Of a DNA stretch of 64,000 bases, positions 2,837-57,933 are shown in pieces. Every line of letters starts with the position of its first letter. The stretch's first letter is position 1. Below the pieces are notes generated by a model, which was not told the origin of the DNA, made no database searches, and saw only the letters and a program-made list of their open reading frames with translations. Source of the stretch: a phage; assembly GCA_022979955.1 (NCBI GenBank), contig GCA_022979955.1_3642.1. One strand, 5' to 3'. Made by a program: the position numbers and the translations under genes.

Positions 2837-2973
2837 CCTGGCAGGGGCGGCGGCTGGAGAATTCCGCCCAAAAAATAATTTTAACTAATGGTTGACAGCT
2901 CGGACAGTTCTTGTTATTCTTATCCTCACAAGGTGAACAACACCACACTAATTAACAGAGAGGATAAAAAATC

Positions 2974-3171
2974 ATGAACGCCTACGGAATCAAAGTACGT
3001 CGCAGCACTCGCCAGGTGGTCACCGATCAAATGGTTTGCCAGGTGGATGTAACCATCAACAACGGGCAAGGCCTTTATAAATTTCGTCGCGGTCATAGCT
3101 ATACCCTGCAACAGCTTAATCGTTGCGCCCTGACAAAAGGCCAGATCAACCACTGGTTTAATAAAAAATAA
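2974..3171 (+). CDS. hypothetical basic protein
   Basis: ORF track; GAGAGGATAAAAAATC-ATG leader. Confidence 0.5.
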   Translation: MNAYGIKVRRSTRQVVTDQMVCQVDVTINNGQGLYKFRRGHSYTLQQLNRCALTKGQINHWFNKK

Positions 3172-3173
3172 AT

Positions 3174-3203
3174 ATTGACATATAGTCTGACACAAAATAT
3201 ACT
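3174..3203 (+). promoter_or_regulatory. sigma70-like promoter TTGACA-N18-TATACT
   Basis: near-consensus hexamers upstream of gene 3236. Confidence 0.5.
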
Positions 3204-3634: not shown

Positions 3635-3716
3635 AAATCATTGACACGCTGCAAAATTTAAGTAAACTAGGCACAAAAGGTGGGAATGTTTCCCGCCAAC
3701 ACGAAGGAAAAAGATC

Positions 3717-4121
3717 ATGAATAAGAACATACGCCGCATCATGAACGAACTGGCAAACGATGAAAAAATTATTGACATGCATTTAGTCAACATTTGCCGC
3801 CGTTGTGTAACATATAACAACCGCGCCGCAAAAGCGCGTGAGATGAACGCAAAAGGCACCTTAAAGCCATTCCAGGTGGTGGTAAAGGCCATTAAAGATG
3901 TAACTAATACGGCAAACCAGGTACAGGGGAACACCAACGAGAGTACCAATATTGATCCGGCTTACATCATGAAACGGATCCGGACCTGCAAGAACAAAGA
4001 GCAAGTGTATAATGTCATAGACTGGTTGGATTCTATGGGCGATGTGGTTTACAATAGGTTTTCTGCAGCTATCGAGATCCAGCTTGACAGGTTGGACGGT
4101 AAAGTACTGAAAACTTACTAA
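3717..4121 (+). CDS. hypothetical protein
   Basis: ORF track; promoter TTGACA at 3646 and leader hairpin upstream. Confidence 0.55.
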   Translation: MNKNIRRIMNELANDEKIIDMHLVNICRRCVTYNNRAAKAREMNAKGTLKPFQVVVKAIKDVTNTANQVQGNTNESTNIDPAYIMKRIRTCKNKEQVYNVIDWLDSMGDVVYNRFSAAIEIQLDRLDGKVLKTY

Positions 4122-4122
4122 G

Positions 4123-4168
4123 TTTATTTTTAGATGGCCTTGACTCCAGGGTCATCAATAAAGTAAAC
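4123..4168 (+). promoter_or_regulatory. conserved about 45-bp palindromic cassette (TTTATTTTTAGATGGCC-TTGACTCCAG-GGxCATCAATAAAGTAAAC), copy 1
   Basis: near-identical copies at 4744 and 8456; inverted repeat GATGGCC/GGCCATC encloses a -35-like TTGACT; A/T tract upstream. Confidence 0.45.
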
Positions 4169-4202
4169 TAATCTCAACTAAGCGAAAAAGGGGGGCTTTA
4201 AG

Positions 4203-4322
4203 ATGAGCACTACACGCCAATACACAAAGGTAACTATTATCGTTTGCGTTGTCGGTTACATCCTGGCGCAAATGTTAATGAGTAGCGCTAACAGTTTTGC
4301 AAAATTTTTCTTAAATTTTTAA
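4203..4322 (+). CDS. small hydrophobic peptide ORF (39 aa)
   Basis: AAGGGGGG SD; single predicted TM-like stretch; below track cut-off. Confidence 0.25.
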   Translation: MSTTRQYTKVTIIVCVVGYILAQMLMSSANSFAKFFLNF

Positions 4323-4401
4323 TTGACAAACTAACTTAGATCGATATACTTAAACACGTAAACGGGAAAACTTCCCAGAGCACACAAAAGGAGAAAACAC
4401 C

Positions 4402-4743
4402 ATGACTACTATGACCGCCGCAGAAAAAGCTATGCAGATCGCCGCGCTGAAAAAACAGATCGCAGACCTTGAGAATAAGATCGATAACTTTGAAATCGAC
4501 GAGGACAAGTACGACGAAAACTATGATGAATGGTTAGACGAGATCTACGGCGAAATCATGATCGGAAACATTTCTTTTCTTCCGTCGCGTATCCTCAAGG
4601 AGCTAGATCCTATCGCTTACCGCTGCGGATTTAGCGACTACATCGACAGCCTGGATATTGAGGACGATGAAGAATACCAGGAATTACAGACAGAGCTCGA
4701 AGAAGTGAAAGAAGAGCTTGCAGAACTGGAAGAAAACGAGTAA
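4402..4743 (+). CDS. hypothetical highly acidic protein
   Basis: ORF track; AAAAGGAGAAAACACC-ATG; D/E-rich with coiled-coil-like ends. Confidence 0.55.
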   Translation: MTTMTAAEKAMQIAALKKQIADLENKIDNFEIDEDKYDENYDEWLDEIYGEIMIGNISFLPSRILKELDPIAYRCGFSDYIDSLDIEDDEEYQELQTELEEVKEELAELEENE

Positions 4744-4790
4744 ATTTATTTTTAGATGGCCTTGACTTCAGGGCCATCAATAAAGTAAAC
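4744..4790 (+). promoter_or_regulatory. conserved palindromic cassette, copy 2
   Basis: matches 4123..4168 apart from 2 substitutions. Confidence 0.45.
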
Positions 4791-4832
4791 TTTAGACTGT
4801 TAACACTTAACCAATACAGAGGAGTTAAAACC

Positions 4833-5078
4833 ATGGCCGCACTAATTACCAAATATTATGCCCCTACCAACACCAAAAGCGCCCGTATCATGGTAAAAGG
4901 CTTCGGACGTAAAAAGGTTTACACCTGGGATTATGCCTTAGACACGGAAGACAACTACACCAACGCGATGACCGATTTTATTAATGATCTGAACACGCGG
5001 ATCTTAACAAATTATAAAATTACCGACATTGCTTATATAGGTGAAGGCGGGATCTGTTTTGTAGGCATTGTGAAATAG
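4833..5078 (+). CDS. hypothetical protein
   Basis: ORF track; CAGAGGAG SD. Confidence 0.5.
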   Translation: MAALITKYYAPTNTKSARIMVKGFGRKKVYTWDYALDTEDNYTNAMTDFINDLNTRILTNYKITDIAYIGEGGICFVGIVK

Positions 5079-5152
5079 TTATTTTTTCGGTGGTCCTGGC
5101 TGCAGGGCCATCTATAAAGATAATTTATTAACACAATGAAAGGAGAAAGTAC

Positions 5153-5506
5153 ATGATCAGCGGGGCAAGTTTTATTATTGGCGCTATTGCTACGGCTTTA
5201 ATTGTAAACAAGATCCAATCTAAAAACGAAAAAGAGAGCAACGCGCTCACAGAATACCCATTTTGGGTATTCAACGACAATGAAGACTACATTATCAAGT
5301 ACAAGAATGAGAAGGGCGACCAGGTAACACCGCGACCGATCCCAGCTTACAAGATGCAAGAAACACTATACCGCCTAAAGGCTGGAGGCGCAAAAATCGT
5401 AGACTTTTGGGGATATGATTGCAAGGATCAGGAGGTTATAAAACGGCGTATCCGGGCGATTCAGGCAAATATTGAAGTTAGCAAGGGGGGAATATATGAA
5501 GATTAA
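5153..5506 (+). CDS. hypothetical protein with N-terminal TM segment
   Basis: ORF track; AAAGGAGAAAG SD; preceded by variant of the palindromic cassette at about 5085..5135. Confidence 0.5.
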   Translation: MISGASFIIGAIATALIVNKIQSKNEKESNALTEYPFWVFNDNEDYIIKYKNEKGDQVTPRPIPAYKMQETLYRLKAGGAKIVDFWGYDCKDQEVIKRRIRAIQANIEVSKGGIYED

Positions 5507-5693
5507 TTTTGAGAAGATTGTAAAGCGATCTCATGATTCCGAAGAGTTGCCGGAACGCCGCCAGCGCAACAATAAATTGAATAAGCCAAAAAGATTTGGG
5601 AAGATCTGGCGGAATCATTATGATCGTAAATTGCCGGGCCTACTTTTGGAACGTGAACGACAGGCGGAACGATACCGCCACAAAGGCAAATAA
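5496..5693 (+). CDS. hypothetical basic protein
   Basis: ORF 5472..5693 trimmed to ATG with AAGGGGGG SD; K/R-rich. Confidence 0.4.
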   Translation: MKINFEKIVKRSHDSEELPERRQRNNKLNKPKRFGKIWRNHYDRKLPGLLLERERQAERYRHKGK

Positions 5694-5699
5694 CAACCA

Positions 5700-5728
5700 A
5701 CGCCCCGCCATTGTGCGGGGCTTTTTAT
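5700..5728 (+). terminator. rho-independent terminator
   Basis: CGCCCCGCC-loop-GCGGGGC hairpin followed by TTTTTATTT. Confidence 0.55.
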
Positions 5729-5851
5729 TTCTATCATACGAATAGCGCCCCTGGTTGGCCCTGTAAGCGCCAAAAAGGCCCCCACCTATGCAATCGCCCC
5801 CTTTAACCTGAAAACATCGCCCAGGGCCGTTTTATGGCGTTAAAAATATCA

Positions 5852-5879
5852 TTGACATCGTCAACAGGTTAGCTATACT
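5852..5879 (+). promoter_or_regulatory. sigma70-like promoter TTGACA-N16-TATACT
   Basis: hexamers read directly; upstream A/T tract. Confidence 0.5.
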
Positions 5880-5911
5880 AACCACATCAAAGAGAGGAAG
5901 GAGTAAACGCC

Positions 5912-6172
5912 ATGCGTAAATTAAAAAATTTTGATAAAGTTGATGTTATCCTGAATAATTTTTACTACTGCAACAACAAGGCTATTTGGTGGCGTGATAG
6001 TTCCACCGATAAAGTCAAGGCGCGCTTTCTCCAAGGGCACTGGCAAGGCCGCCCAGTGATTAAAATCATGGGGCAATTGGTAGCGTTTAAAAATTGCCGC
6101 CGTGTTGATGACGTTGAGGAGATTTTAAACATTTTGCGCCACAATAATTTAAAAAATAGTGTTGACAAGTAA
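5912..6172 (+). CDS. hypothetical protein
   Basis: ORF track; GAGGAAGGAG SD. Confidence 0.5.
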   Translation: MRKLKNFDKVDVILNNFYYCNNKAIWWRDSSTDKVKARFLQGHWQGRPVIKIMGQLVAFKNCRRVDDVEEILNILRHNNLKNSVDK

Positions 6173-6189
6173 ATCTCAATAAGTATACT
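6162..6189 (+). promoter_or_regulatory. sigma70-like promoter TTGACA-N16-TATACT
   Basis: followed by leader hairpin GGCGGGAAAACTTCCCGCC then SD. Confidence 0.5.
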
Positions 6190-6246
6190 TAAACACACAG
6201 GCGGGAAAACTTCCCGCCACTAACAAAGAAAATAGGAGAAAATATC

Positions 6247-6870
6247 ATGACCACCGTTAACATTACCGCAGGTTACAATTTATCTTTCGACGTGCTGACC
6301 GACGAACAAAAAGAAAAAGCTATTGAAATGGTCCGCGAAAGAGAAGAACACAGTGGGGATAACTTTTTTGCAGAAAGTGTAATTGAATACTATAAAGAAT
6401 ATGTTTTTCCAGAGTACGGGCTTGAAGATACAAAAGTACATTGGTCAGGCTTTTGGTGCCAGGGTGACGGCGCGTCAATCAGTGCGGAAAACGTGGATTT
6501 AGAAAAATTCTTGCGTAAAGTCAAGTCTCTGACTAAATTCCGCTCAATTCGTCGCTTGTTCGGCACAATGCACGATGGCGAACTATCCGCAAGTGTTGAG
6601 CGTGATCCATATAGCCGCTATAGTCACGAAAACACTGTAAGCGGGTACATCGATACTACATGGCTAGACCTGACCGCCAAACAAGAAAATAAAGTGGAAG
6701 ATCTGGAAGAGCTGATCACCGAGACGGTACGGGAGCTATCCCGCAAGGTTTACGTAGACCTGGAGGAGGCCTATCTAGAACAGTTCACTACCGAAAACCT
6801 GATCGGCCTTATTGAGGCCAATGATTGGCGGTTTGATGTAGATGAATATGGAGAGATGAGTTTTTCATAA
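6247..6870 (+). CDS. hypothetical acidic protein (207 aa)
   Basis: ORF track; AATAGGAGAAAATATC-ATG. Confidence 0.6.
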   Translation: MTTVNITAGYNLSFDVLTDEQKEKAIEMVREREEHSGDNFFAESVIEYYKEYVFPEYGLEDTKVHWSGFWCQGDGASISAENVDLEKFLRKVKSLTKFRSIRRLFGTMHDGELSASVERDPYSRYSHENTVSGYIDTTWLDLTAKQENKVEDLEELITETVRELSRKVYVDLEEAYLEQFTTENLIGLIEANDWRFDVDEYGEMSFS

Positions 6871-6959
6871 ATAAAGTGTTGCAATAATCTAAAAACCTGC
6901 TATATTAAAACTCAAGGGGCAAGACGTTTGCCCCCACACAAAACAAAGAGGAAAACATC

Positions 6960-7340
6960 ATGAAAAACACTACTAAAGCTATTGACACCGTCATGTTTAA
7001 CCTAGTTACCTTTCGCGAGGATATGAAAGATCTTCCACGTGAAACAGTGTGCGATCACATTGAAAACTATCGCAAACTAATCAAAGAGTTGCCTTTAAAA
7101 CGTGATCAGTATGCGGCTAACGCCATGCTTAATGCCATGATCAAAAAGATGATCCAGTGTGATTTAACTCTGGCCTATGACTATGCGGGTGGTCGTTTTG
7201 CAGTATACAATCAGCCCGTGCCCGGTATGGGCACCACCGAAGAATTGCACGCGTTAAATCTGAAGCAAGATGTATGGGATAACATGCCCCGCGTGGTGGT
7301 GTGGGCAGAAAGCGGAAAGATTTACGGCGATAATTTTTAA
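6960..7340 (+). CDS. hypothetical protein
   Basis: ORF track; AAAGAGGAAAACATC-ATG. Confidence 0.55.
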   Translation: MKNTTKAIDTVMFNLVTFREDMKDLPRETVCDHIENYRKLIKELPLKRDQYAANAMLNAMIKKMIQCDLTLAYDYAGGRFAVYNQPVPGMGTTEELHALNLKQDVWDNMPRVVVWAESGKIYGDNF

Positions 7341-7404
7341 TCAGGTAACAGGCGGCATATTTGCCGCCTTATTGTTAAACAGAACTGCAAAAGAGGTACA
7401 TAGA

Positions 7405-7776
7405 ATGGAATTTATTATTTTGGCTGTAGTAGTTGCCTTGTTCAACGCCTGGATCGCTGGCAAGATAGGTAGATCCGCTTTTCTATGGTTTGTTATATCT
7501 ATTTTCCTGGGAGTGGTTGCAACTATTGTATTGGTTATCCTTGCAATTGTTGACAAGGGCGATAATAGAAAGGGTAAAGTGTTTTCCGACCTGTATGACG
7601 CACAAACGTTTGTCAACGCCTATTATAGTGATCTTCCAGTCTCCCTACGCTGCAGCCTGGCACAACAGGTTTTTGATGAGGCTAAAACCAGAGACCAAGC
7701 CCATGAGATATGTTTAACTGAGGCGGATCGCCTATTTGAGAGGAATAGAAAATATGTGGACCAGCCGTTTAAATAA
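7405..7776 (+). CDS. hypothetical membrane protein (2 predicted TM)
   Basis: ORF 7270..7776 trimmed to ATG at 7405 with AAGAGG SD. Confidence 0.5.
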   Translation: MEFIILAVVVALFNAWIAGKIGRSAFLWFVISIFLGVVATIVLVILAIVDKGDNRKGKVFSDLYDAQTFVNAYYSDLPVSLRCSLAQQVFDEAKTRDQAHEICLTEADRLFERNRKYVDQPFK

Positions 7777-7999
7777 CGCCACGTTAATTAATCCCTTTAG
7801 TGAAGATTTGAAGCCAGCCGCCTGGCGTGACGGATTCAATAACGAACGCTTTATTTTCAGGCCTGATCTTGAGGAATTTTATAACAATGGATCGAACAAC
7901 AGCGGAGATAATTTTTCTTGTGATGTGCGTGGTGATGGTACTCCTGGGGGCCATTGTAAACCACGTCACTACTACCAGGAGGAAAGGGGGAGACGATGA
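7754..7999 (+). CDS. hypothetical protein (uncertain; alternative overlapping micro-ORFs at about 7887 and 7996 encode TM peptides)
   Basis: ORF track trimmed to ATG with GAGAGG SD; low-complexity C-terminus. Confidence 0.25.
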   Translation: MWTSRLNNATLINPFSEDLKPAAWRDGFNNERFIFRPDLEEFYNNGSNNSGDNFSCDVRGDGTPGGHCKPRHYYQEERGRR

Positions 8000-8107
8000 C
8001 AACCAAGGATAAGCCCCGCACCGATAAGGTGCGCCAGGTTATGGTATGGCTTGAGATCATCGCCCTTGAAATATTGTTAGGGGTAGGAATGTACTTTATT
8101 GCTATAA

Positions 8108-8137
8108 GTAACTGATAACGCCCCCGATCATGGGGGC
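8108..8137 (+). terminator. rho-independent terminator
   Basis: GCCCCCGATCATGGGGGC hairpin followed by T-rich run. Confidence 0.5.
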
Positions 8138-8254
8138 TTAACTTTTTCAAAAAATTTTTCTTCCAGGGTGTTGCAATCTGGTCCGCAATATGGATAATAA
8201 CAATCAACGGGGAAACATCCCCACCAACACAAAAACCAGAAAGGAGAAACAAAA

Positions 8255-8455
8255 ATGAGCAACAATATCCGCGTTATTAACTTCAAAAAAGAAGAAAAAA
8301 TTGCCGTGCTGATTGACGGTCAAGAAATATTCAAGGGGTATTATGAAGATCATCAAACGGCGATTAGTATCACTCGCGTGATTGGTTACCATAATTTTTA
8401 CCCTCAAGGCGCTGAGGCAGCAGTAAAACGAATTAAAGAGATTGTAGGCCTGTAA
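8255..8455 (+). CDS. hypothetical protein
   Basis: ORF track; AAAGGAGAAACAAAA-ATG; promoter TTGCAA..GATAAT upstream. Confidence 0.5.
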   Translation: MSNNIRVINFKKEEKIAVLIDGQEIFKGYYEDHQTAISITRVIGYHNFYPQGAEAAVKRIKEIVGL

Positions 8456-8503
8456 AATTTATTTTTAGATGGCCTTGACTCCAGGGCCATCAATAAAGTA
8501 AAT
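8456..8503 (+). promoter_or_regulatory. conserved palindromic cassette, copy 3
   Basis: identical core to copy 2. Confidence 0.45.
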
Positions 8504-8546
8504 TTAAACCCTGTTAAAATAATCAGTGCAAAAAGGAGTAATGATC

Positions 8547-8846
8547 ATGTTTATCCAGGCTAATAATCTTTATTTCTTTGATGGTCAGATCGTAGACGGC
8601 GTGGAGGTGGAAATCACCGGGTGCCCTGGCGGTCAGGTTATGACTTTTCGGAATAATGCCTTTGATGATTCTCATATCGTTATGAGAATGGAAGTTAGTA
8701 AGCTGGATGACAAGAAAACACTTATCGACTATTCCGTCAAAGATCATCCAGACTACCACATGATCTATGGTGATTTGTGCATTGTTGACCGTGACAAGGT
8801 GAACGGCATTGTTATAGCCATTGTGAACGATGTTTTCTCTGAATAA
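8547..8846 (+). CDS. hypothetical protein
   Basis: ORF 8526..8846 (GTG) trimmed to ATG at 8547 with AAAGGAG SD. Confidence 0.5.
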   Translation: MFIQANNLYFFDGQIVDGVEVEITGCPGGQVMTFRNNAFDDSHIVMRMEVSKLDDKKTLIDYSVKDHPDYHMIYGDLCIVDRDKVNGIVIAIVNDVFSE

Positions 8847-9069
8847 TTCCGGCAAATGATGCAAAATAAGGCCCCTAGCAGGGCCTGCAGCGATATAATC
8901 ACATAAAGGCTATGCGGTTGCATGTCCTTTATTATTTTAGCGTTACAGCGGCCCCAAGGCGCTTAAAAAAATTTTTAAAGAAGTACTTGCATCAAGCCCT
9001 ACAATATGGATAATAGGACGTGTCAGGGGGAGGCCCCAATCATTAACCGGATAGATAGGAGTTAAAACC

Positions 9070-9354
9070 ATGGCTATTGTTACCGCTGGCGATGTAGTAG
9101 AAATGGAAGCAAAATACTTAAAAGCGGGTATGCATATCCTACGCAACGATCTTGAACTGGTCCTGACAATGGTTGACTATAACCCAGGGCAAGATTATCC
9201 AAGTGTTGACTACTTTTTTGAGTATGTTGATGAAGAGTTGAAAGAGGATGAGGCCTATTGCGGTGAGTTCTGCAACTTCTTTTGTCCTGATGAGGTTGTA
9301 AAGGTTATCTATCAACCTGGCGTAGCTTTCCCGCTGCACGCTATCAATAAATAA
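9070..9354 (+). CDS. hypothetical acidic protein
   Basis: ORF track; ATAGGAG SD. Confidence 0.5.
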   Translation: MAIVTAGDVVEMEAKYLKAGMHILRNDLELVLTMVDYNPGQDYPSVDYFFEYVDEELKEDEAYCGEFCNFFCPDEVVKVIYQPGVAFPLHAINK

Positions 9355-9358
9355 ACCT

Positions 9359-9382
9359 GGCGGGGCCGAAAAGGCCCCCGCC
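9359..9382 (+). terminator. terminator-like GC hairpin (GGCGGGGCC-GAAAA-GGCCCCCGCC)
   Basis: perfect stem read directly; weak U tract. Confidence 0.4.
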
Positions 9383-9416
9383 TGAAATTATGAAAAATAA
9401 AAAGAGGCAAACTATC

Positions 9417-9650
9417 ATGATGGAACAAATTAAACGCGCTGAGGCTATTAATGGCAATGTGATCTATTTTGTCAGCAAAAACGAAAAAGGCGTACCCTAT
9501 GCGGCGGTAATAGTACAGCCTGACGGCGATTATTGGTGCACTGTGTACGGCGCTTATTCTTTTGGGCGTCCAGTGCATGATAAAATTTTGAAAGTAGCGA
9601 ACCCTACCGGGAAAAATATTACAGCAGAAAAATTTTTTGAAAATAGTTGA
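9417..9650 (+). CDS. hypothetical protein
   Basis: ORF 9390..9650 trimmed to ATG at 9417 with AAGAGG SD. Confidence 0.45.
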   Translation: MMEQIKRAEAINGNVIYFVSKNEKGVPYAAVIVQPDGDYWCTVYGAYSFGRPVHDKILKVANPTGKNITAEKFFENS

Positions 9651-9725
9651 CATGACCATATAAAACTGTAGTATATAAATCAAAGGGGGCAACAAGCCCC
9701 ACCAACCACAAAGAGGATAAAAATC

Positions 9726-9905
9726 ATGGCTATTATTGCAAAGACTGAGATCGTAGGCTTAGATTCTATTCTCCTCGCATATGAGGAAGCTATAGAAATG
9801 TATGTAGTTTCCTATGGTGAGTATATCCGTGAATATAAATCTATTGATCTGGCTTTTGAATGTTATATTCGCCAGGTAAATAAAGCATATGATGATTATC
9901 GTTAA
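9726..9905 (+). CDS. hypothetical protein (59 aa)
   Basis: promoter TTGACA at about 9643, leader hairpin, AAGAGGATAAAAATC-ATG; just below track cut-off. Confidence 0.45.
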   Translation: MAIIAKTEIVGLDSILLAYEEAIEMYVVSYGEYIREYKSIDLAFECYIRQVNKAYDDYR

Positions 9906-9996
9906 AATAGTTTGACAACAATTACAAATCGGGTAGAATGTATTTCGTAGGGGAGACAAGCGCCCCATTAAACGCAACAGGAAGAGGATAAACACC

Positions 9997-10242
9997 ATGA
10001 AAAGCAATAAAGGTTATAACGGTTACAAAAACAAAACTCATTGGAATGTAAGCCTTTGGATTAATAACGATGAGTCATTGTACCGGTTGGCCCAAGGCTT
10101 TATTAACGCTAATGCTAATCGTAATGATGCGGCGCGGGATATGATGCTTTTTCTGGAGCTAACCGGACAAGATAAGACCCCGGACGGCTTCAAGTACAGC
10201 ACTACGGCGATCCGTTCCGCGATGGTTGGAATGAAACACTAA
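9997..10242 (+). CDS. hypothetical protein
   Basis: ORF track; promoter TTGACA..TAGAAT; GAAGAGGATAAACACC-ATG. Confidence 0.5.
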   Translation: MKSNKGYNGYKNKTHWNVSLWINNDESLYRLAQGFINANANRNDAARDMMLFLELTGQDKTPDGFKYSTTAIRSAMVGMKH

Positions 10243-10319
10243 AAGCACATAGCCGCCTTACCCTGGGGCTGTAGTAGCGGCCCCATGAATAAGGTTACTA
10301 ACAGAAGAGAATAAACACC

Positions 10320-10424
10320 ATGAAACAGAAATTAATCGATGCAGTGATCTTGGTTATTGCCCTTGGTATTGGCCTGATTGCAACCATGTCTAATATGATC
10401 TTGTCTTCCAACGGTATCGGGTGA
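10320..10424 (+). CDS. small hydrophobic peptide ORF (34 aa)
   Basis: AGAAGAGAATAAACACC-ATG leader as in neighbouring genes. Confidence 0.3.
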   Translation: MKQKLIDAVILVIALGIGLIATMSNMILSSNGIG

Positions 10425-10433
10425 GGTTGGCAA

Positions 10434-10649
10434 ATGATCACTAACAAAACAGGCAAAACAGAATTTTTACGCGGCTTGCAAATAGGTAAGCCTGAGATCT
10501 GGCATTGCACTAAAACACCACGCGACGAAATGAAAGACTTTACCGCCACGCTGAAGCGGGTAAAGATATCCATTACGCAGAAAAAAGCCTTGATAGTGGT
10601 GGAAGGTGAGATCCCTCAAGCCGTTGTTATAGTTGAGCGTACAGCATAG
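10434..10649 (+). CDS. hypothetical protein
   Basis: ORF track; GGTGAGG SD. Confidence 0.45.
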   Translation: MITNKTGKTEFLRGLQIGKPEIWHCTKTPRDEMKDFTATLKRVKISITQKKALIVVEGEIPQAVVIVERTA

Positions 10650-10740
10650 TTTAATTTATACCGATACCCGAAAATTAACCAACAAAGCATAAACAGGCGG
10701 TTGCCGCCGCCTTAAACGTAGCAGAAAGAGGATAGATACA

Positions 10741-11025
10741 ATGAAAAAGATGATCGCAGTGGTTGCCCTGGTTGTTGGACTTAATGCGCCTGTAATGGCC
10801 AAAGAGCTGGCAAAAGAGGTAGATCTAACTGATATCCATGCCGTCAATCAAATCGGTGTTACTTATCGCCTATGCCTTGCCGCTAAAACTTTCCAGGATG
10901 GCACGACAGAGTACTACGGATTCGAGGGCGTTCGGTGCGGTGAACTTGCTCACGACCTTAAAGAAGATCCAGACCTGGAGGATCTGCCGATAACCGTAAA
11001 CGGGAAAACTTACGTGAACCGTTAA
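10741..11025 (+). CDS. hypothetical secreted/periplasmic protein
   Basis: ORF track; signal-peptide-like N-terminus MKKMIAVVALVVGLNAPVMA; AGAAAGAGGA SD. Confidence 0.5.
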   Translation: MKKMIAVVALVVGLNAPVMAKELAKEVDLTDIHAVNQIGVTYRLCLAAKTFQDGTTEYYGFEGVRCGELAHDLKEDPDLEDLPITVNGKTYVNR

Positions 11026-11170
11026 CCATGAGAAAGATAATTATTACCATTGGGATCGTGGCGGCAATGTTGGCGATCTTTCCCTTTATGGTTAGGTATG
11101 TGCTGATTAATGTTGTCCTGGTAGTCAGTGATCTGGTGTTATATATTAACTCATTGTTTTAGGCGCGATA

Positions 11171-11362
11171 ATGACAGCGGAAGAAGTTAAAAAAGTACTG
11201 GCGGTACTGCGTTATCATAATCATTGCAAGGTGAAGAATGATCCTGATTATCTTGATTCATCCCTTGAAGAGGATACACTACAAGCCATAAGCAACATGC
11301 AAGAATTGCTTAAGCGTATGACAGAGAAAAACCGACCGGACTACATAGGGGGTAAAATATGA
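11171..11362 (+). CDS. hypothetical protein
   Basis: ORF track; weak SD. Confidence 0.4.
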   Translation: MTAEEVKKVLAVLRYHNHCKVKNDPDYLDSSLEEDTLQAISNMQELLKRMTEKNRPDYIGGKI

Positions 11363-11670
11363 TCGCTATTACGCCAACCGTTTTAGATTGGTATCGGCAA
11401 CGCATAGCGCCTCCGCTGGCTATCTTCAAAGATGCGGAAGCAAAACAACGCCGGATCTCAATACATGAGATCATCAACCTTAACGCCGGAGGCACACCAT
11501 ACCGCCCAGGACCTGGCCGTGAGATGGACAATACGTTAGCGATCCTGAAGATACGCCGTAAACGGTCCTCCCTTACTCTGGACTCATTACACACAATGCA
11601 GCCTCCGTTCCAGGTGACCGGGAAACGGATCGCCAGGTCCTGGACAAAGGCCAATGATCGGACCGTATAA
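11359..11670 (+). CDS. hypothetical protein
   Basis: ORF track; AGGGGG SD; ATGA overlap with upstream gene. Confidence 0.45.
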   Translation: MIAITPTVLDWYRQRIAPPLAIFKDAEAKQRRISIHEIINLNAGGTPYRPGPGREMDNTLAILKIRRKRSSLTLDSLHTMQPPFQVTGKRIARSWTKANDRTV

Positions 11671-11756
11671 ATAAAAGTGTTTTGGTACTGATTTTGGGGT
11701 TGACTTGTTCGGCCCCTTTTGCTATTCTTATTAAACGGGCGGCACTTGGGAACAGG

Positions 11757-11779
11757 GGGAGACAATCACCGGGCCTGCC
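11757..11779 (-). repeat. 23-bp element, inverted copy B of 2332..2354
   Basis: exact reverse complement of copy A. Confidence 0.55.
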
Positions 11780-11887
11780 TGTCATATAAGAACTATAAAA
11801 ACCGTTGACATCTGCCATGGGGTGAGGTAACATTTATCTTGAAGGGGCAAAAGTGCCCACACAACAACCAGGAGAGAGGAAAACACT

Positions 11888-12160
11888 ATGTCAAGCTGGA
11901 TTAATCAAGAAGTCGAATCACGTTTTAATGCTATTTGGGATCTCATCGAAAAAGAGGACGGAACATCAAGCCCCTATCTCAACAATTTGGAATTCCATTT
12001 TGTGGAAGCGATGAACGCAGAACATGATCACGAAGGTGGCGCGGATGAGTTCGCTAAAGGTTATGGCTTTAACAATGCCAACGAAATGATCGAGGCGGTC
12101 GTACTCCAAGCTGAGGAAGATTATCAATTAAAAACGCTTGAATTCTGCCGCCATAAGTAA
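11888..12160 (+). CDS. hypothetical acidic protein
   Basis: ORF track; promoter TTGACA..TAACAT, leader hairpin, GGAGAGAGG SD. Confidence 0.5.
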   Translation: MSSWINQEVESRFNAIWDLIEKEDGTSSPYLNNLEFHFVEAMNAEHDHEGGADEFAKGYGFNNANEMIEAVVLQAEEDYQLKTLEFCRHK

Positions 12161-12220
12161 TAAGATAATGACACGGGCCAAAAGGCCCACTAATCAGAAC
12201 CGCACAAAGAGGTAAACATC

Positions 12221-12484
12221 ATGAAACGTCTTGATCAGCTCAAATTAGTTCAATATATGGCTTATCGTGTTCTTGAAGTCCAGAAAGGTAGCAAAAAAGA
12301 GGTTTGCGAGAAAGCTTATAAGATCTTCACTCGCAAAAAAGATGACTGGATGCTACGCCAGACTAAAAAGGCTGACATCTTGGGGTACCTGGAAGAAGAG
12401 ATCCGCCTTGAAGAGCAAGAAGAGATCCGCCGTAGTGAGGCAGATTATCAGGCAGCTTGGGAAAACTGGATGAGCAACAAATAA
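12221..12484 (+). CDS. hypothetical protein
   Basis: ORF track; AAAGAGG SD. Confidence 0.5.
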   Translation: MKRLDQLKLVQYMAYRVLEVQKGSKKEVCEKAYKIFTRKKDDWMLRQTKKADILGYLEEEIRLEEQEEIRRSEADYQAAWENWMSNK

Positions 12485-12550
12485 TACAACAAGTTACATG
12501 GTCAGGGGCAATAAAGCCCCTTGATCACATAAAAATTATGCTATCCCTGG

Positions 12551-12579
12551 TTGACAGGGATCGGCAGTTTTGCTATATT
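12551..12579 (+). promoter_or_regulatory. sigma70-like promoter TTGACA-N17-TATATT
   Basis: hexamers read directly upstream of gene 12628. Confidence 0.5.
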
Positions 12580-12627
12580 CTTTTTGAAGGGAAGTTGTAA
12601 GAAAATTAACTAAGAGGTAAAAACACC

Positions 12628-13047
12628 ATGAACATTAAATCTAATAATCCGGCATATAGCTTTGATAACGCTTTTTGTCACGGTCCGGCGGCGAAAGGAT
12701 TCGAAATCGATGGTAAACTAATTATTGTCAATGTTGACGGGGAAGAGGTTGCAGTATATCCGGTGGCAGACGTAAAAAGCCGTTTACAATGCCGCATGGA
12801 TGTTACCGCCTATCAGCTTGATCCGGTCCGCATAGTTGCCCTGGTCCTGGAAGAAGAAATTAAAGCCATGCACCATAGCAACAGATTTATTGGTGACGCG
12901 CAGGATAATATGAAAGTATGCCGCCATAAAGTTAATGAAGTGCTTAAAGAGTACGGCTATAGAGATCTTATGATCAAACGTGAGGAAAAATTCCGCTACC
13001 GTAACGACCTGGCAAATCGGATTTTTGAAATATACGAATCATTATAA
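12628..13047 (+). CDS. hypothetical protein
   Basis: ORF track 139 aa; AAGAGGTAAAAACACC-ATG. Confidence 0.55.
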   Translation: MNIKSNNPAYSFDNAFCHGPAAKGFEIDGKLIIVNVDGEEVAVYPVADVKSRLQCRMDVTAYQLDPVRIVALVLEEEIKAMHHSNRFIGDAQDNMKVCRHKVNEVLKEYGYRDLMIKREEKFRYRNDLANRIFEIYESL

Positions 13048-13065: not shown

Positions 13066-13092
13066 AAGGGGCTTAGGCCCCTTTCTTTTTGT
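13066..13092 (+). terminator. rho-independent terminator ending the + strand early block
   Basis: AAGGGGC-TTAG-GCCCCTT hairpin followed by TCTTTTTG. Confidence 0.55.
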
Positions 13093-21091: not shown

Positions 21092-21409
21092 TCAATCCCA
21101 AAAGTCAATCTTTACTTTACCTTTTCCCTTACCTTTCTTTCCACCGCATTTAGCCAACTGGCGTGCTGCAACATCCACCATACGGTCAGTTGCCTCGTAA
21201 GCATCGCTACCTTTAGCTTTGGCGATAACTTCTTTCCCAGAATTGTCAAAAATAAAAGCCATAACTTCCTGGTGATCATTTTCAACTTTTACACTCACAC
21301 GTGCATAGTTGGCAGAGGGGTGCAAGCGCTCCAGCTTGGACATTTTGTGGGAAATGAAAGACACCATACCTTCAGTGATCTCTACGTTGCCAGTGATTTC
21401 AATCTGCAT
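21092..21409 (-). CDS. hpf: ribosome hibernation promoting factor / RaiA (YfiA)-like protein
   Basis: N-terminus MQIEITGNVEITEG and C-terminal DAYEATDRMVDVAARQLAK track the E. coli HPF pattern MQLNITGNNVEITEA...DMYAAIDGLIDKLARQLTK (recalled); followed by lysine-rich tail. Confidence 0.6.
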   Translation of the reverse strand: MQIEITGNVEITEGMVSFISHKMSKLERLHPSANYARVSVKVENDHQEVMAFIFDNSGKEVIAKAKGSDAYEATDRMVDVAARQLAKCGGKKGKGKGKVKIDFWD

Positions 21410-38469: not shown

Positions 38470-38902
38470 TATGAATATCTTCAGCCTTTTCAGATTGTTT
38501 TGTATACTTTCTTACATTAACACGATCTTCTACAGGGATATCATACGGGAGATCTTGAACAAGCATTGCCTCACCAGGTGCTTTATCTACATCTAAAATA
38601 TCTACACCGTTATACATTTGTGGGTATCTAAAGTCTGCACGCATGACACCAGCAAATACATCTGCCTTTCGATAATGTGTTGGCTTATTTTTGCATCGAA
38701 CGTTTTTTCCACGAAGAACATCAATACTTTTTAAATCAAACCCTACGGCAAAGAGTGCAGCTCGGAGACCGTTTCGTGTGCGAACGTTAAACCCGGGGAC
38801 GGTAGATAGAAAATCTAAAGTAACTGAAATAAATGTCTTTTTAGGAATCATAACATTACTCATATCTGTCTCCATTTCTGGCTCACCAACAAAGTGAGCC
38901 AT
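38402..38902 (-). CDS. hypothetical protein
   Basis: ORF track 166 aa. Confidence 0.45.
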   Translation of the reverse strand: MAHFVGEPEMETDMSNVMIPKKTFISVTLDFLSTVPGFNVRTRNGLRAALFAVGFDLKSIDVLRGKNVRCKNKPTHYRKADVFAGVMRADFRYPQMYNGVDILDVDKAPGEAMLVQDLPYDIPVEDRVNVRKYTKQSEKAEDIHIVDEPFNFEDLHRLEKLFGIES

Positions 38903-57830: not shown

Positions 57831-57927
57831 GCTAGGTAAGCCCTTTGGCAAGGGCGAGGATTTTTAATCCTGAAAATAGACGAGGTAGTCGTTGAATACA
57901 TAGGTGGTTCGATTCCACCGCCTAGCA
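57831..57927 (+). tRNA. atypical tRNA-like gene (anticodon loop TTTTTAA, nominal Lys-UUU) with about 30-nt extra arm
   Basis: acceptor GCTAGGT/GCCTAGC, D-arm GCCC-TTTGGCAA-GGGC, T-arm GGTGG-TTCGATT-CCACC; 4-bp anticodon stem; no encoded CCA. Confidence 0.35.
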
Positions 57928-57933
57928 CCTTTT

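Follow-up and report, generated by a model that had tools for sequence, protein, structure and literature searches.

Why would a phage place a short, GC-rich hairpin between a strong promoter and the start codon of one small gene after another? This question is raised by a 64,000-nucleotide (64-kb) stretch of phage DNA (contig GCA_022979955.1_3642.1; herein the window, meaning the stretch at its full length), in which a 9.5-kb array of small ORFan genes contains many copies of a unit that we call the type-1 cassette. Its parts follow in the order sigma70 promoter, gap of 8-13 nucleotides (nt), GC-rich stem of 4-8 base pairs (bp) with a loop of 3-5 nt, A/C-rich leader bearing a Shine-Dalgarno (SD) sequence, and ATG. 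All lines of evidence from sequence comparison point to a hairpin that is under selection as a helix in plus-strand (mRNA-sense) RNA, with the sequence of its loop being irrelevant.

The best matches of a 9.1-kb region among 303 matching phage records are the Vequintavirus genomes ECP2303, naam, rV5_ev168, and Murica (93-96% identity), and therefore the window represents an rV5-like phage of Escherichia coli. Every gene beneath the Vequintavirus matches in this region is annotated as "hypothetical," and Pfam and PHROGs searches with the genes downstream of the cassettes return only families of unknown function. No Rfam covariance-model family was found for the leaders, as two sub-threshold chance hits (E > 0.5) were all that emerged between 2500 and 13000. 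The paper on the rV5 genome counts 33 promoters and 20 terminators, and leader hairpins are absent from its account (PMC3606486). The literature searched holds no transcription-start, transcriptome, or mRNA half-life data for rV5-like phages. Relatives were taken from GenBank phage records, since protein-based retrieval from IMG/VR yielded only two close relatives.

A recurring promoter, hairpin, and leader

A hairpin-first scan, a promoter-first scan, and reading by eye agree on the type-1 layout, which precedes the following eleven plus-strand genes, all of them small ORFans of unknown function. The last line gives a repeat that covers the initiation region of some of them.

2892..2976, plus strand: cassette of ATG 2974, a weak member; -35 TTGACA at 2892-2897, -10 TATTCT at 2915-2920, hairpin GGTG-aacaa-CACC at 2932-2944, A-rich spacer, SD
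3641..3719, plus strand: cassette of ATG 3717; -35 at 3641-3646, -10 TAAACT at 3663-3668, hairpin GGTGGGAA-tgt-TTCCCGCC at 3679-3697 with one G-U pair
4323..4404, plus strand: cassette of ATG 4402; -35 at 4323-4328, -10 TATACT at 4345-4350, 13-nt gap, weak hairpin GGGAA-aac-TTCCC at 4364-4376, CA-rich spacer
6162..6249, plus strand: cassette of ATG 6247; -35 at 6162-6167, -10 TATACT at 6184-6189, hairpin GGCGGGAA-aac-TTCCCGCC at 6200-6218
6879..6962, plus strand: cassette of ATG 6960; -35 TTGCAA at 6879-6884, -10 TATATT at 6901-6906, hairpin GGGGCAA-gacgt-TTGCCCC at 6916-6934, leader CACACAAAACAAAGAGGA
8171..8257, plus strand: cassette of ATG 8255; -35 TTGCAA at 8171-8176, -10 GATAAT at 8193-8198, hairpin GGGGA-aaca-TCCCC at 8209-8222
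8987..9072, plus strand: cassette of ATG 9070; weaker -35 TTGCAT at 8987-8992, -10 GATAAT at 9009-9014, hairpin GGGG-gagg-CCCC at 9026-9037
9647..9728, plus strand: cassette of ATG 9726; -35 at 9647-9652, -10 TAGTAT at 9669-9674, hairpin GGGGC-aacaa-GCCCC at 9686-9700, leader ACCAACCACAAAGAGGA
9912..9999, plus strand: cassette of ATG 9997; -35 at 9912-9917, -10 TAGAAT at 9934-9939, imperfect hairpin GGGGAG-acaag-CGCCCC at 9950-9966 (A-G mismatch)
11805..11890, plus strand: cassette of ATG 11888; -35 at 11805-11810, -10 TAACAT at 11828-11833, hairpin GGGCA-aaag-TGCCC at 11845-11858, leader ACACAACAACCAGGAGAGAGGA
12138..12223, plus strand: type-1-like cassette of ATG 12221; TTGAAT at 12138-12143, 17 nt, TAAGAT at 12161-12166 (8/12), hairpin GGGCC-aaaa-GGCCC at 12175-12188
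2959-2977, 4387-4405, 5897-5915, 6232-6250, 6945-6963, 8240-8258, 10305-10323, 12206-12224, and 12613-12631, plus strand: AAAGAGGAAAACAYCATGA initiation repeat, from a repeat search

The original prediction was that at least 12 plus-strand and several minus-strand genes share one leader. A stereotyped leader does occur far above chance, but on about eleven genes and on the plus strand. We scanned both strands of the window with a descriptor comprising a promoter with at least 9 of 12 consensus matches, a gap of 6-13 nt, a stem of at least 4 bp with at least 3 GC pairs, a loop of 3-8 nt, a spacer of at least 6 nt, an SD, and an ATG. This yielded 11 sites, whereas 40 dinucleotide-shuffled sequences gave 0.175 on average and never more than 1. 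Eight of the 11 sites are uniform, all located on the plus strand between 2.9 and 11.9 kb, and these are the strict members (ATGs 2974, 3717, 4402, 6247, 6960, 8255, 9726, and 11888), to which 9997 is added with its imperfect stem. The cassettes of 9070, a gene absent from the earlier list, and of 12221 have weaker promoters (3/6 in the -35 hexamer of the former and 8/12 overall in the latter), yet hairpin, spacer, and SD are present in both.

Other elements of the predicted leader hold up well. The promoters had been described as near consensus, and nine of the eleven cassettes indeed match at 9-11 of 12 positions; upstream of the -35 hexamers are A/T-rich runs such as AAAATTTTT. The proposed AAGAGGA-N7-ATG initiation signal corresponds to a nine-copy repeat family, AAAGAGGAAAACAYCATGA(AA), which comprises the SD, an A-rich 7-nt spacer, the ATG, and A-rich second codons. 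Some of the nine genes with this repeat have no leader hairpin.

Two hairpins in the array lie after stop codons and are accompanied by an SD in the absence of a promoter:

9359..9419, plus strand: intercistronic, promoterless hairpin GGCGGGGCC-gaaaa-GGCCCCCGCC at 9359-9382 with SD; ATG 9417
10695..10743, plus strand: promoterless hairpin AGGCGG-ttgccg-CCGCCT at 10695-10712 with SD; ATG 10741

The second of these had been counted as a member, but the promoter scan found no promoter with at least 9/12 matches upstream of 10741. Among the minus-strand genes once included, 20954 is preceded by a 27-nt intergenic gap without promoter or leader hairpin. The gene at 21409 does have both, but its stem is A/G-rich, its spacer measures 6 nt, and its tail contains U. 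We also considered and rejected a minus-strand hairpin at 38863, which begins only 2 nt after the -10 hexamer. At this site (38932-38863, minus strand), a consensus-like promoter (TTGACT, 17 nt, TATAAT) is followed after 2 nt by an 8-bp palindrome, TGGCTCAC-tttgttg-GTGAGCCA, and then by a short leader. A stem here would extend across the transcription start, and the palindrome has more in common with an operator or an upstream terminator than with a 5' hairpin.

The cassette had also been assigned to the whole early gene set, an extent that is not supported. Within Vequintavirus, the type-1 module is local to the 9.5-kb ORFan array. In phage naam, this array forms the end of a plus-strand unit that starts about 40 kb upstream, beside an annotated anti-sigma factor, and that carries rIIA/B, helicase, primase, and DNA polymerase genes upstream of the array. 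Only one further clear type-1 copy was found in those 40 kb of the same transcription unit. In the window itself, judging from GC skew and open reading frames (ORFs), the plus strand carries the genes from 1 to ~15.8 kb and again beyond 53.3 kb, and the minus strand carries those in between.

Co-evolution had been read from the uniformity of the leaders, part of which is explained by paralogy and cassette exchange. The leaders of 4402 and 6247 are paralogous (74% over 54 nt), and those of 8255 and 9070 have CAATATGGATAATA in common. The leader of 9997 is a chimera, and that of 12221 is likewise chimeric. The promoter half of the 9997 leader (tagtttgacaacaattacaaatcgggtagaatgtatttcgta) is near-identical to Justusliebigvirus promoters of other genes (L020 11144 and L022 12231), and its hairpin/SD half matches the orthologue in phage ESCO5 (L021 10354-10399), whose stem GGGGCG-GUAA-CGCCCC is perfect. 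Other Vequintavirus genomes have a different promoter at this position.

Selection on the hairpin and its predicted place in the transcript

To follow the leaders among relatives, 12 of them were aligned with orthologues from 13 close relatives, and pairwise diversity was calculated for each element. The -35 hexamer is the most conserved (0.000), and the stem equals the -10 hexamer (0.048 each), followed by the SD (0.062) and the first codons (0.070). Diversity then rises through the -10-to-stem interval (0.094), the promoter spacer (0.105), and the A/C spacer (0.132), and the loops are the most variable class of all (0.183). Whole loops are replaced among orthologues with stems kept, as in TGT to ACA, AAAA to GGGA, GAAAA to TTTTC, and AAACA to AGCTACA. 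For example, orthologues of the 3717 hairpin carry GGCGGGAA, and relative L003 shows the TGT-to-ACA loop change; the 12221 stem is invariant, and its AAAA loop becomes GGGA or GAAA. Even the promoterless 9417 hairpin retains its stem in relative L017 when its loop is swapped to TTTTC. The 8255 loop is variable, and five relatives gain one G-C pair there. The weak hairpin of 2974 is retained in relatives, where an A-to-G change in L003 yields a U-G pair.

The stem changes in orthologues, which are small in number, tend to preserve pairing. Nine are single changes that maintain a pair through G-C/G-U/A-U switches on the plus strand, and two are double changes, namely GGGG/CCCC to GGAGG/CCTCC at 9070 (a double compensatory change in L003) and the new G-C pair at 8255. 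Seven are disruptive, three of which would be wobbles if read on the minus strand. For the 6960 orthologues, RNAalifold reports eight pairs with AU to GU three times, GC to GU once, GU to GC three times, and one broken cell; the 9070 variants were folded individually owing to indels in the G run. The hairpin of 6247 has a predicted stability of -14.6 kcal/mol (z = -5.5).

A strand preference is also evident in a set of 37 cassettes with promoter, hairpin, and SD, drawn from the window and three distant relatives. By a margin of >1 kcal/mol, folding is stronger on the sense than on the antisense strand in 16 cassettes and the reverse holds in 2, and there are 16 G-U pairs on the sense strand versus 3 on the antisense strand. 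A covariance model of the leader was set aside because a MAFFT alignment of 28 hairpins, which differ in stem and loop length, is not structure-consistent. A model of non-homologous hairpins would show covariation by construction, and therefore we relied on the orthologous alignments and the shuffled descriptor.

The hairpin is anchored to the promoter rather than to the ATG or to the preceding stop codon. The gap between -10 hexamer and stem is 9-11 nt in 29 of the 37 cassettes, most often 10, and 8-13 nt in the window, whereas the distance from stem to ATG is 19-32 nt and that between the upstream stop codon and the hairpin varies from about 15 to 180 nt. At sigma70 promoters in general, transcription starts 7-8 nt after the -10 hexamer, which would put the beginning of the stem at about +2 to +6 of the predicted transcript.

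The leader behind the stem had been called unstructured and A/C-rich, a description with which both its U-poor composition and the predicted mRNA folds agree. Hairpin-to-ATG leaders in the window consist of 52% A, 20% C, 17% G, and 10% T, compared with 24.6% T regionally (binomial p about 1e-12), and the 12-nt tails immediately behind the stems of the 37 cassettes consist of 58% A, 13% C, 18% G, and 11% T. When the predicted mRNAs are folded, all 11 retain the hairpin, and the stretch between -18 and +13 relative to the ATG is largely free of pairing (mean unpaired probability of 0.44-0.88). Intrinsic termination at the type-1 hairpin was considered and rejected, as the tails lack a U tract and a plus-strand terminator scan flagged none of the type-1 leader hairpins. 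On the minus strand, T-rich sequence follows six of the hairpins, and the scan flags these six as terminator-like.

Other composite elements and the design in other phages

Additional promoter/stem-loop elements and terminators are interspersed in the same array.

4120..4170, plus strand: type-2 cassette, copy 1; 51-nt extended hairpin, -22.3 kcal/mol, z = -6.2
4742..4792, plus strand: type-2 cassette, copy 2 (repeat search, fold)
5076..5126, plus strand: type-2 cassette, copy 3, diverged (73% identity), fold preserved through compensatory changes
8455..8505, plus strand: type-2 cassette, copy 4 (repeat search, fold)
11696..11733, plus strand: composite intrinsic terminator/promoter, GGGG-ttgacttgttc-GGCCCC with -35 TTGACT in the loop, then a T run and -10 TATTCT after it
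5702..5731, plus strand: canonical intrinsic terminator, GCCCCGC-cattgt-GCGGGGC followed by TTTTTATTT
7350-7369, 8120-8137, and 13066-13083, plus strand: other canonical terminators (terminator scan)

The type-2 cassette serves the genes at 4204, 4833, 5153, and 8547. Its predicted fold is a 20-bp extended hairpin (-20 to -23 kcal/mol, z about -6) that starts from the upstream gene's stop codon, with the -35 hexamer TTGACT enclosed in its apical part and the -10 hexamer (TAAACT in copy 1) in its 3' arm. Three pairs with double compensatory changes and several wobble switches are seen, in an alignment of four copies only, and no U tract is found at these hairpins on either strand. The element resembles a composite of the promoter-early stem-loop (PeSL) type discussed below, and a role as an RNase III-like processing site is conceivable. 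Phage ECP32 (L019 892-1015) lacks the 620-bp module 4171-4792, which holds ORF 4204-4322 along with the 4402 cassette and gene, and its junction is a clean chimera of type-2 copies 1 and 2. Judged by its sequence, this junction is as expected of recombination between type-2 repeats, which is PeSL-like behavior.

The composite at 11696-11733 was flagged by both the terminator and the promoter scans, and relatives keep the element with different stems. Within 11696-11800 (plus strand), the composite is followed by a conserved non-coding core of ~45 nt, ACGGGCGGCACYTGGGnACAGGGGnAGAnAATCACCGG, which is common to Vequintavirus and Stephanstirmvirinae (L003 12276, L017 8775, L020 13367, L021 10870, and L022 14011). 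The core has no ATG, no Rfam match, and a weak consensus structure (-7 kcal/mol, one compensatory pair), and it may function as a small RNA or bind a protein. The terminator at 5702..5731 indicates that the array employs U-tract terminators where termination is needed. Far from the array, inside a tRNA cluster at 57.36-58.17 kb, ARAGORN calls a 99-nt tRNA-like gene (57831-57929, plus strand) of undetermined identity with a four-base anticodon (atcc).

The type-1 design is conserved across three genera and two subfamilies. It occurs before small genes in Justusliebigvirus (alia and KKP_3264) and Phapecoctavirus (ESCO5) of the subfamily Stephanstirmvirinae, with stems GGGCGGCA..UGCCGCUC and GGCGGGAA..UUCCCGCC of -12 to -18 kcal/mol and CACAUA in front. 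The Salmonella phage PVP-SE1 (Seunavirus) has the same design with stems GGCCGGGGA..UCCCCGGC. An IMG/VR pattern scan for a promoter plus GGCGGGAA returned mostly single chance matches, along with Cluster-B-like mycobacteriophages (relatives of Thonko and Imvubu). There, a cassette of the form TTGACA-N17-TAACTT-N10-GGCGGGaaguaCCCGCC-GGGAAG-N8-ATG is present in four copies in 3.5 kb. These high-GC cassettes precede small right-arm genes (L038, which is Thonko 61.8-69.5 kb, and L056, L060, L066, L075, and L078), which suggests that the design of promoter, leader hairpin, and SD is convergent in unrelated phages. Four AT-rich IMG/VR phage contigs of 134-169 kb (L033, L088, L096, and L100) contain a repeated TTGACA-N17-TGTATAATAGGGGTGGTTGGGCGGGAATAGATAAT followed by very AT-rich sequence; this element has no hairpin and is unrelated to type-1 cassettes.

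Possible roles of the hairpin and their significance

The explanation that we favor, and to which we give about an even chance of being correct, is that the type-1 hairpin is a 5'-terminal protective and insulating mRNA element that acts together with a leader poor in RNase E sites and accessible to ribosomes. Selection for pairing on the sense strand, a predicted position near +1, and a U-poor leader that is predicted to be unstructured are all compatible with a 5'-terminal stabilizer followed by an accessible ribosome-binding site. We infer the transcription start, the stabilizing or insulating effect, and the early timing of expression.

Under this proposal, each cassette would be a self-contained expression unit for one small ORFan gene. 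Host sigma70 RNA polymerase would initiate about 7-8 nt past the -10 hexamer to give a transcript whose 5' end consists of 2-5 unpaired nt directly followed by a stable GC hairpin. By sequestering the 5' end, the hairpin might leave RppH and the 5'-monophosphate sensor of RNase E to engage poorly, because both need single-stranded termini, and it might also keep the 5' end from pairing with the downstream coding sequence. Lacking a U tract behind its stem, it would not become a terminator. The next 19-32 nt, A/C-rich and low in U and G, would avoid self-pairing and offer few AU-rich RNase E sites, leaving a strong SD (AAGAGGA/AAGGAG, 7-nt spacing) open for ribosomes. Together, the hairpin and a bound ribosome would cover almost the entire 5' untranslated region (UTR) of 40-55 nt. 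Furthermore, any gene placed behind the cassette would receive the same open initiation region, which would amount to insulation.

What is known of mRNA decay in E. coli lends some credence to this mechanism. Secondary structure at the 5' end stabilizes mRNA there since RppH and RNase E require single-stranded 5' ends (PMC3997798), and RNase E cuts AU-rich single-stranded sites (PMC9943677). Moreover, phage rV5 has a gene for a T4 Srd homologue (PMC3606486), and the Srd protein of T4 activates RNase E against host mRNA (PMC4980113). By analogy, stimulation of RNase E by an Srd-type protein is a plausible, if speculative, selective reason for protecting phage messages. One might go further and imagine that the 5' hairpin and U-poor leader mark accessory-gene mRNAs as "self" and spare them from Srd-boosted, 5'-end-dependent decay. 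As a comparable arrangement is found in the Cluster-B-like mycobacteriophages and, modified, in T4-like PeSLs, the cassette might even be a general, convergent plug-and-play chassis for newly acquired phage genes, although we consider this extension as a whole doubtful.

Several observations weigh against the protective role that we favor. RNase E readily bypasses an ordinary stem-loop that is located away from the extreme 5' end (PMC9943677), and therefore an overhang of 5-7 nt would largely void protection. The overhang is predicted to be 2-7 nt (median 4) if transcription starts exactly 7 nt after the -10 hexamer, which is borderline, as the longest of these overhangs would still present RppH and RNase E with a single-stranded 5' terminus. 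The hairpins of 2974 (-3 to -4.5 kcal/mol) and 4402 (-4 to -5.5 kcal/mol, with its 13-nt gap) are weak. A purely 5'-terminal role cannot explain all hairpins, since those of 9417 and 10741 have no promoter, and strong promoters at 3175, 5852, and 12551 in the same array have no hairpin. The counts of stem substitutions are not independent because the cassettes are partly paralogous. Finally, the published reading of the analogous stem-loops in PeSLs is termination or attenuation (PMC2839356).

That last reading supplies the main alternative, which we nevertheless find unlikely for type-1 hairpins. In this scenario, the hairpin would be a PeSL-type attenuator or a 3'-end structure for upstream transcripts that limits read-through in a promoter-dense array or blocks 3' exonucleases, and its position in the downstream leader would be incidental. 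G(n)-loop-C(n) stem-loops near sigma70 promoters in T4-like ORFan regions are reported to cut downstream lacZ expression about as much as rrnB T1 (PMC2839356; PMC4122927). The array also holds the composite terminator/promoter at 11696-11733 and type-2 51-nt hairpins that start at stop codons, and the promoterless hairpins at 9359 and 10695 follow stop codons as well. However, the type-1 hairpins lie past the start site of their own promoter, and a terminator there would kill its own transcript. Their tails are U-depleted, none passes the plus-strand terminator scan, and canonical U-tract terminators serve elsewhere in the array. The spacing of the hairpin is fixed relative to the -10 hexamer and loose relative to the upstream stop codon. 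If the hairpin acted instead in transcription or as DNA, for example, in promoter escape or against backtracking, as a palindromic operator or cruciform, or as a minus-strand terminator against antisense transcription, then its constant distance from the -10 hexamer and its association with near-consensus promoters, where escape can be limiting, would be accounted for, as would the six hairpins that look terminator-like on the minus strand. We regard such roles as improbable. The G-U pairs favor plus-strand RNA (16 versus 3), as do the wobble switches among orthologues (9 versus 3), and positions that are G-U on the sense strand are A-C mismatches on the minus strand or in duplex DNA, which disfavors operator, cruciform, and minus-strand functions. 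The diversity of stem sequences also speaks against a sequence-specific operator.

A slim chance remains with the idea that the hairpin is bound by a phage or host RNA-binding factor, such as in nut/boxB-like antitermination, translational regulation, or early-gene shut-off by an endonuclease. A promoter-proximal hairpin with an A-rich loop does look boxB-like, and phi92-like phages and PVP-SE1 show rather little loop variation (AAUAGU / AAUGGU). In Vequintavirus, however, the loops are the most variable element (0.183) and are swapped wholesale between orthologues, the stems differ in sequence and length among cassettes, and neither a conserved boxA-like partner nor an Rfam match is found. 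The boxB-like reading was rejected on the free variation of loops (3-5 nt in strict cassettes) among paralogues and orthologues alike. Very improbable, in our view, is that the hairpin is a hitch-hiker in a promoter cassette spread by duplication or recombination, with little function of its own beyond providing homology for the shuffling of ORFans. The paralogous leaders of 4402 and 6247, the CAATATGGATAATA sequence held in both the 8255 and 9070 leaders, the chimeric 9997 leader, and the loss of the 620-bp module between two type-2 copies in ECP32 are compatible with such a process. Nevertheless, rearrangement breakpoints among 12 relatives are not enriched in the cassettes (10 of 55, in 17.6% of the region), stems are under purifying selection with pair-preserving changes while neighboring loops and spacers drift, and the design recurs across genera with unrelated stem sequences.

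The closest described elements are PeSLs and the 5' stabilizer hairpins of the ompA/papA type. With the former, the type-1 cassette shares the parts list and niche but not the position; with the latter, it shares the proposed mechanism but is a multi-copy module. PeSLs are known from the T4-like phages RB49/phi1, PST/T4, and nt-1/KVP40 (Arbiol et al. 2010, PMC2839356; Comeau et al. 2014, PMC4122927). Like them, the elements described here are repeated cassettes of roughly 100 bp in ORFan-rich regions; in each, AT-rich sequence precedes a near-consensus sigma70 promoter, and a G(n)-loop-C(n) stem-loop is present along with the SD and start codon of the small gene that comes next. PeSLs are linked to gene gain and loss among close relatives, and the ECP32 deletion is located between two type-2 copies. 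Unlike PeSLs, the elements described here belong to Vequintavirinae / Stephanstirmvirinae rather than to T4-like myoviruses. In most PeSLs, the stem-loop occupies the interval between the -35 and -10 hexamers or overlaps the latter and is read as a terminator or attenuator (PMC2839356), whereas the type-1 hairpin is located 9-11 nt past the -10, inside the transcript, and has a U-depleted tail. Only the type-2 elements and the 11696 element have the PeSL layout in the window. As for the PeSL trait of serving as recombination sites, there is one clean type-2 case and there are the chimeric 9997 and 12221 leaders, set against the breakpoint count given above.

The stem-loops in the ompA and papA 5' UTRs are, as cited in a later account, 5'-terminal mRNA stabilizers (Emory, Bouvet and Belasco 1992, as cited in PMC3997798). 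They resemble the type-1 arrangement in that a hairpin at or near the 5' end, proposed to deny access to a single-stranded terminus, is followed by an accessible ribosome-binding site. In the type-1 leaders, too, pairing rather than sequence appears to matter (stem 0.048 versus loop 0.183, with wobble and compensatory changes). Those are single genes with measured half-lives, whereas here the module is found on ~11 genes and is fused to a consensus promoter, with 5' ends and half-lives that are predicted, and the predicted overhang may exceed the limit for protection in some copies.

More distant comparisons are also instructive. Early transcripts with a lambda-type nut site (boxA plus boxB) likewise contain a short RNA hairpin that is close to the promoter and has an A-rich loop. 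The type-1 hairpins differ in having no conserved loop sequence or size, no boxA partner, and one hairpin per gene rather than per operon. Intrinsic terminators share the GC-rich 4-8 bp stem and short loop, but type-1 hairpins are without a U tract and follow a promoter instead of a gene. Engineered 5' hairpin stabilizers and leader insulators follow the same design logic as type-1 cassettes. Morons and synthetic insulated cassettes are similar in that each small accessory gene comes with a promoter of its own and with a leader that is independent of context; the type-1 units are natural, arranged in tandem in a virulent phage, and mostly without a terminator after each gene.

With three kinds of promoter/stem-loop composite present together in this array, the PeSL concept extends to phages other than the T4-like ones. 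If the type-1 hairpins do cap 5' ends, then the array would be a natural multi-copy system for the study of minimal 5' UTR design and of mRNA lifetime during infection, in which the minimal design of interest combines a hairpin, an unstructured spacer free of U, and a strong SD. Such a system could show whether phage messages escape phage-stimulated RNase E activity, and it would give synthetic biology a set of naturally optimized, sequence-diverse promoter and leader parts. For Vequintavirinae and Stephanstirmvirinae, phages of use in therapy and biocontrol, the cassette would also provide a simple annotation signature for the promoters of early ORFan genes.

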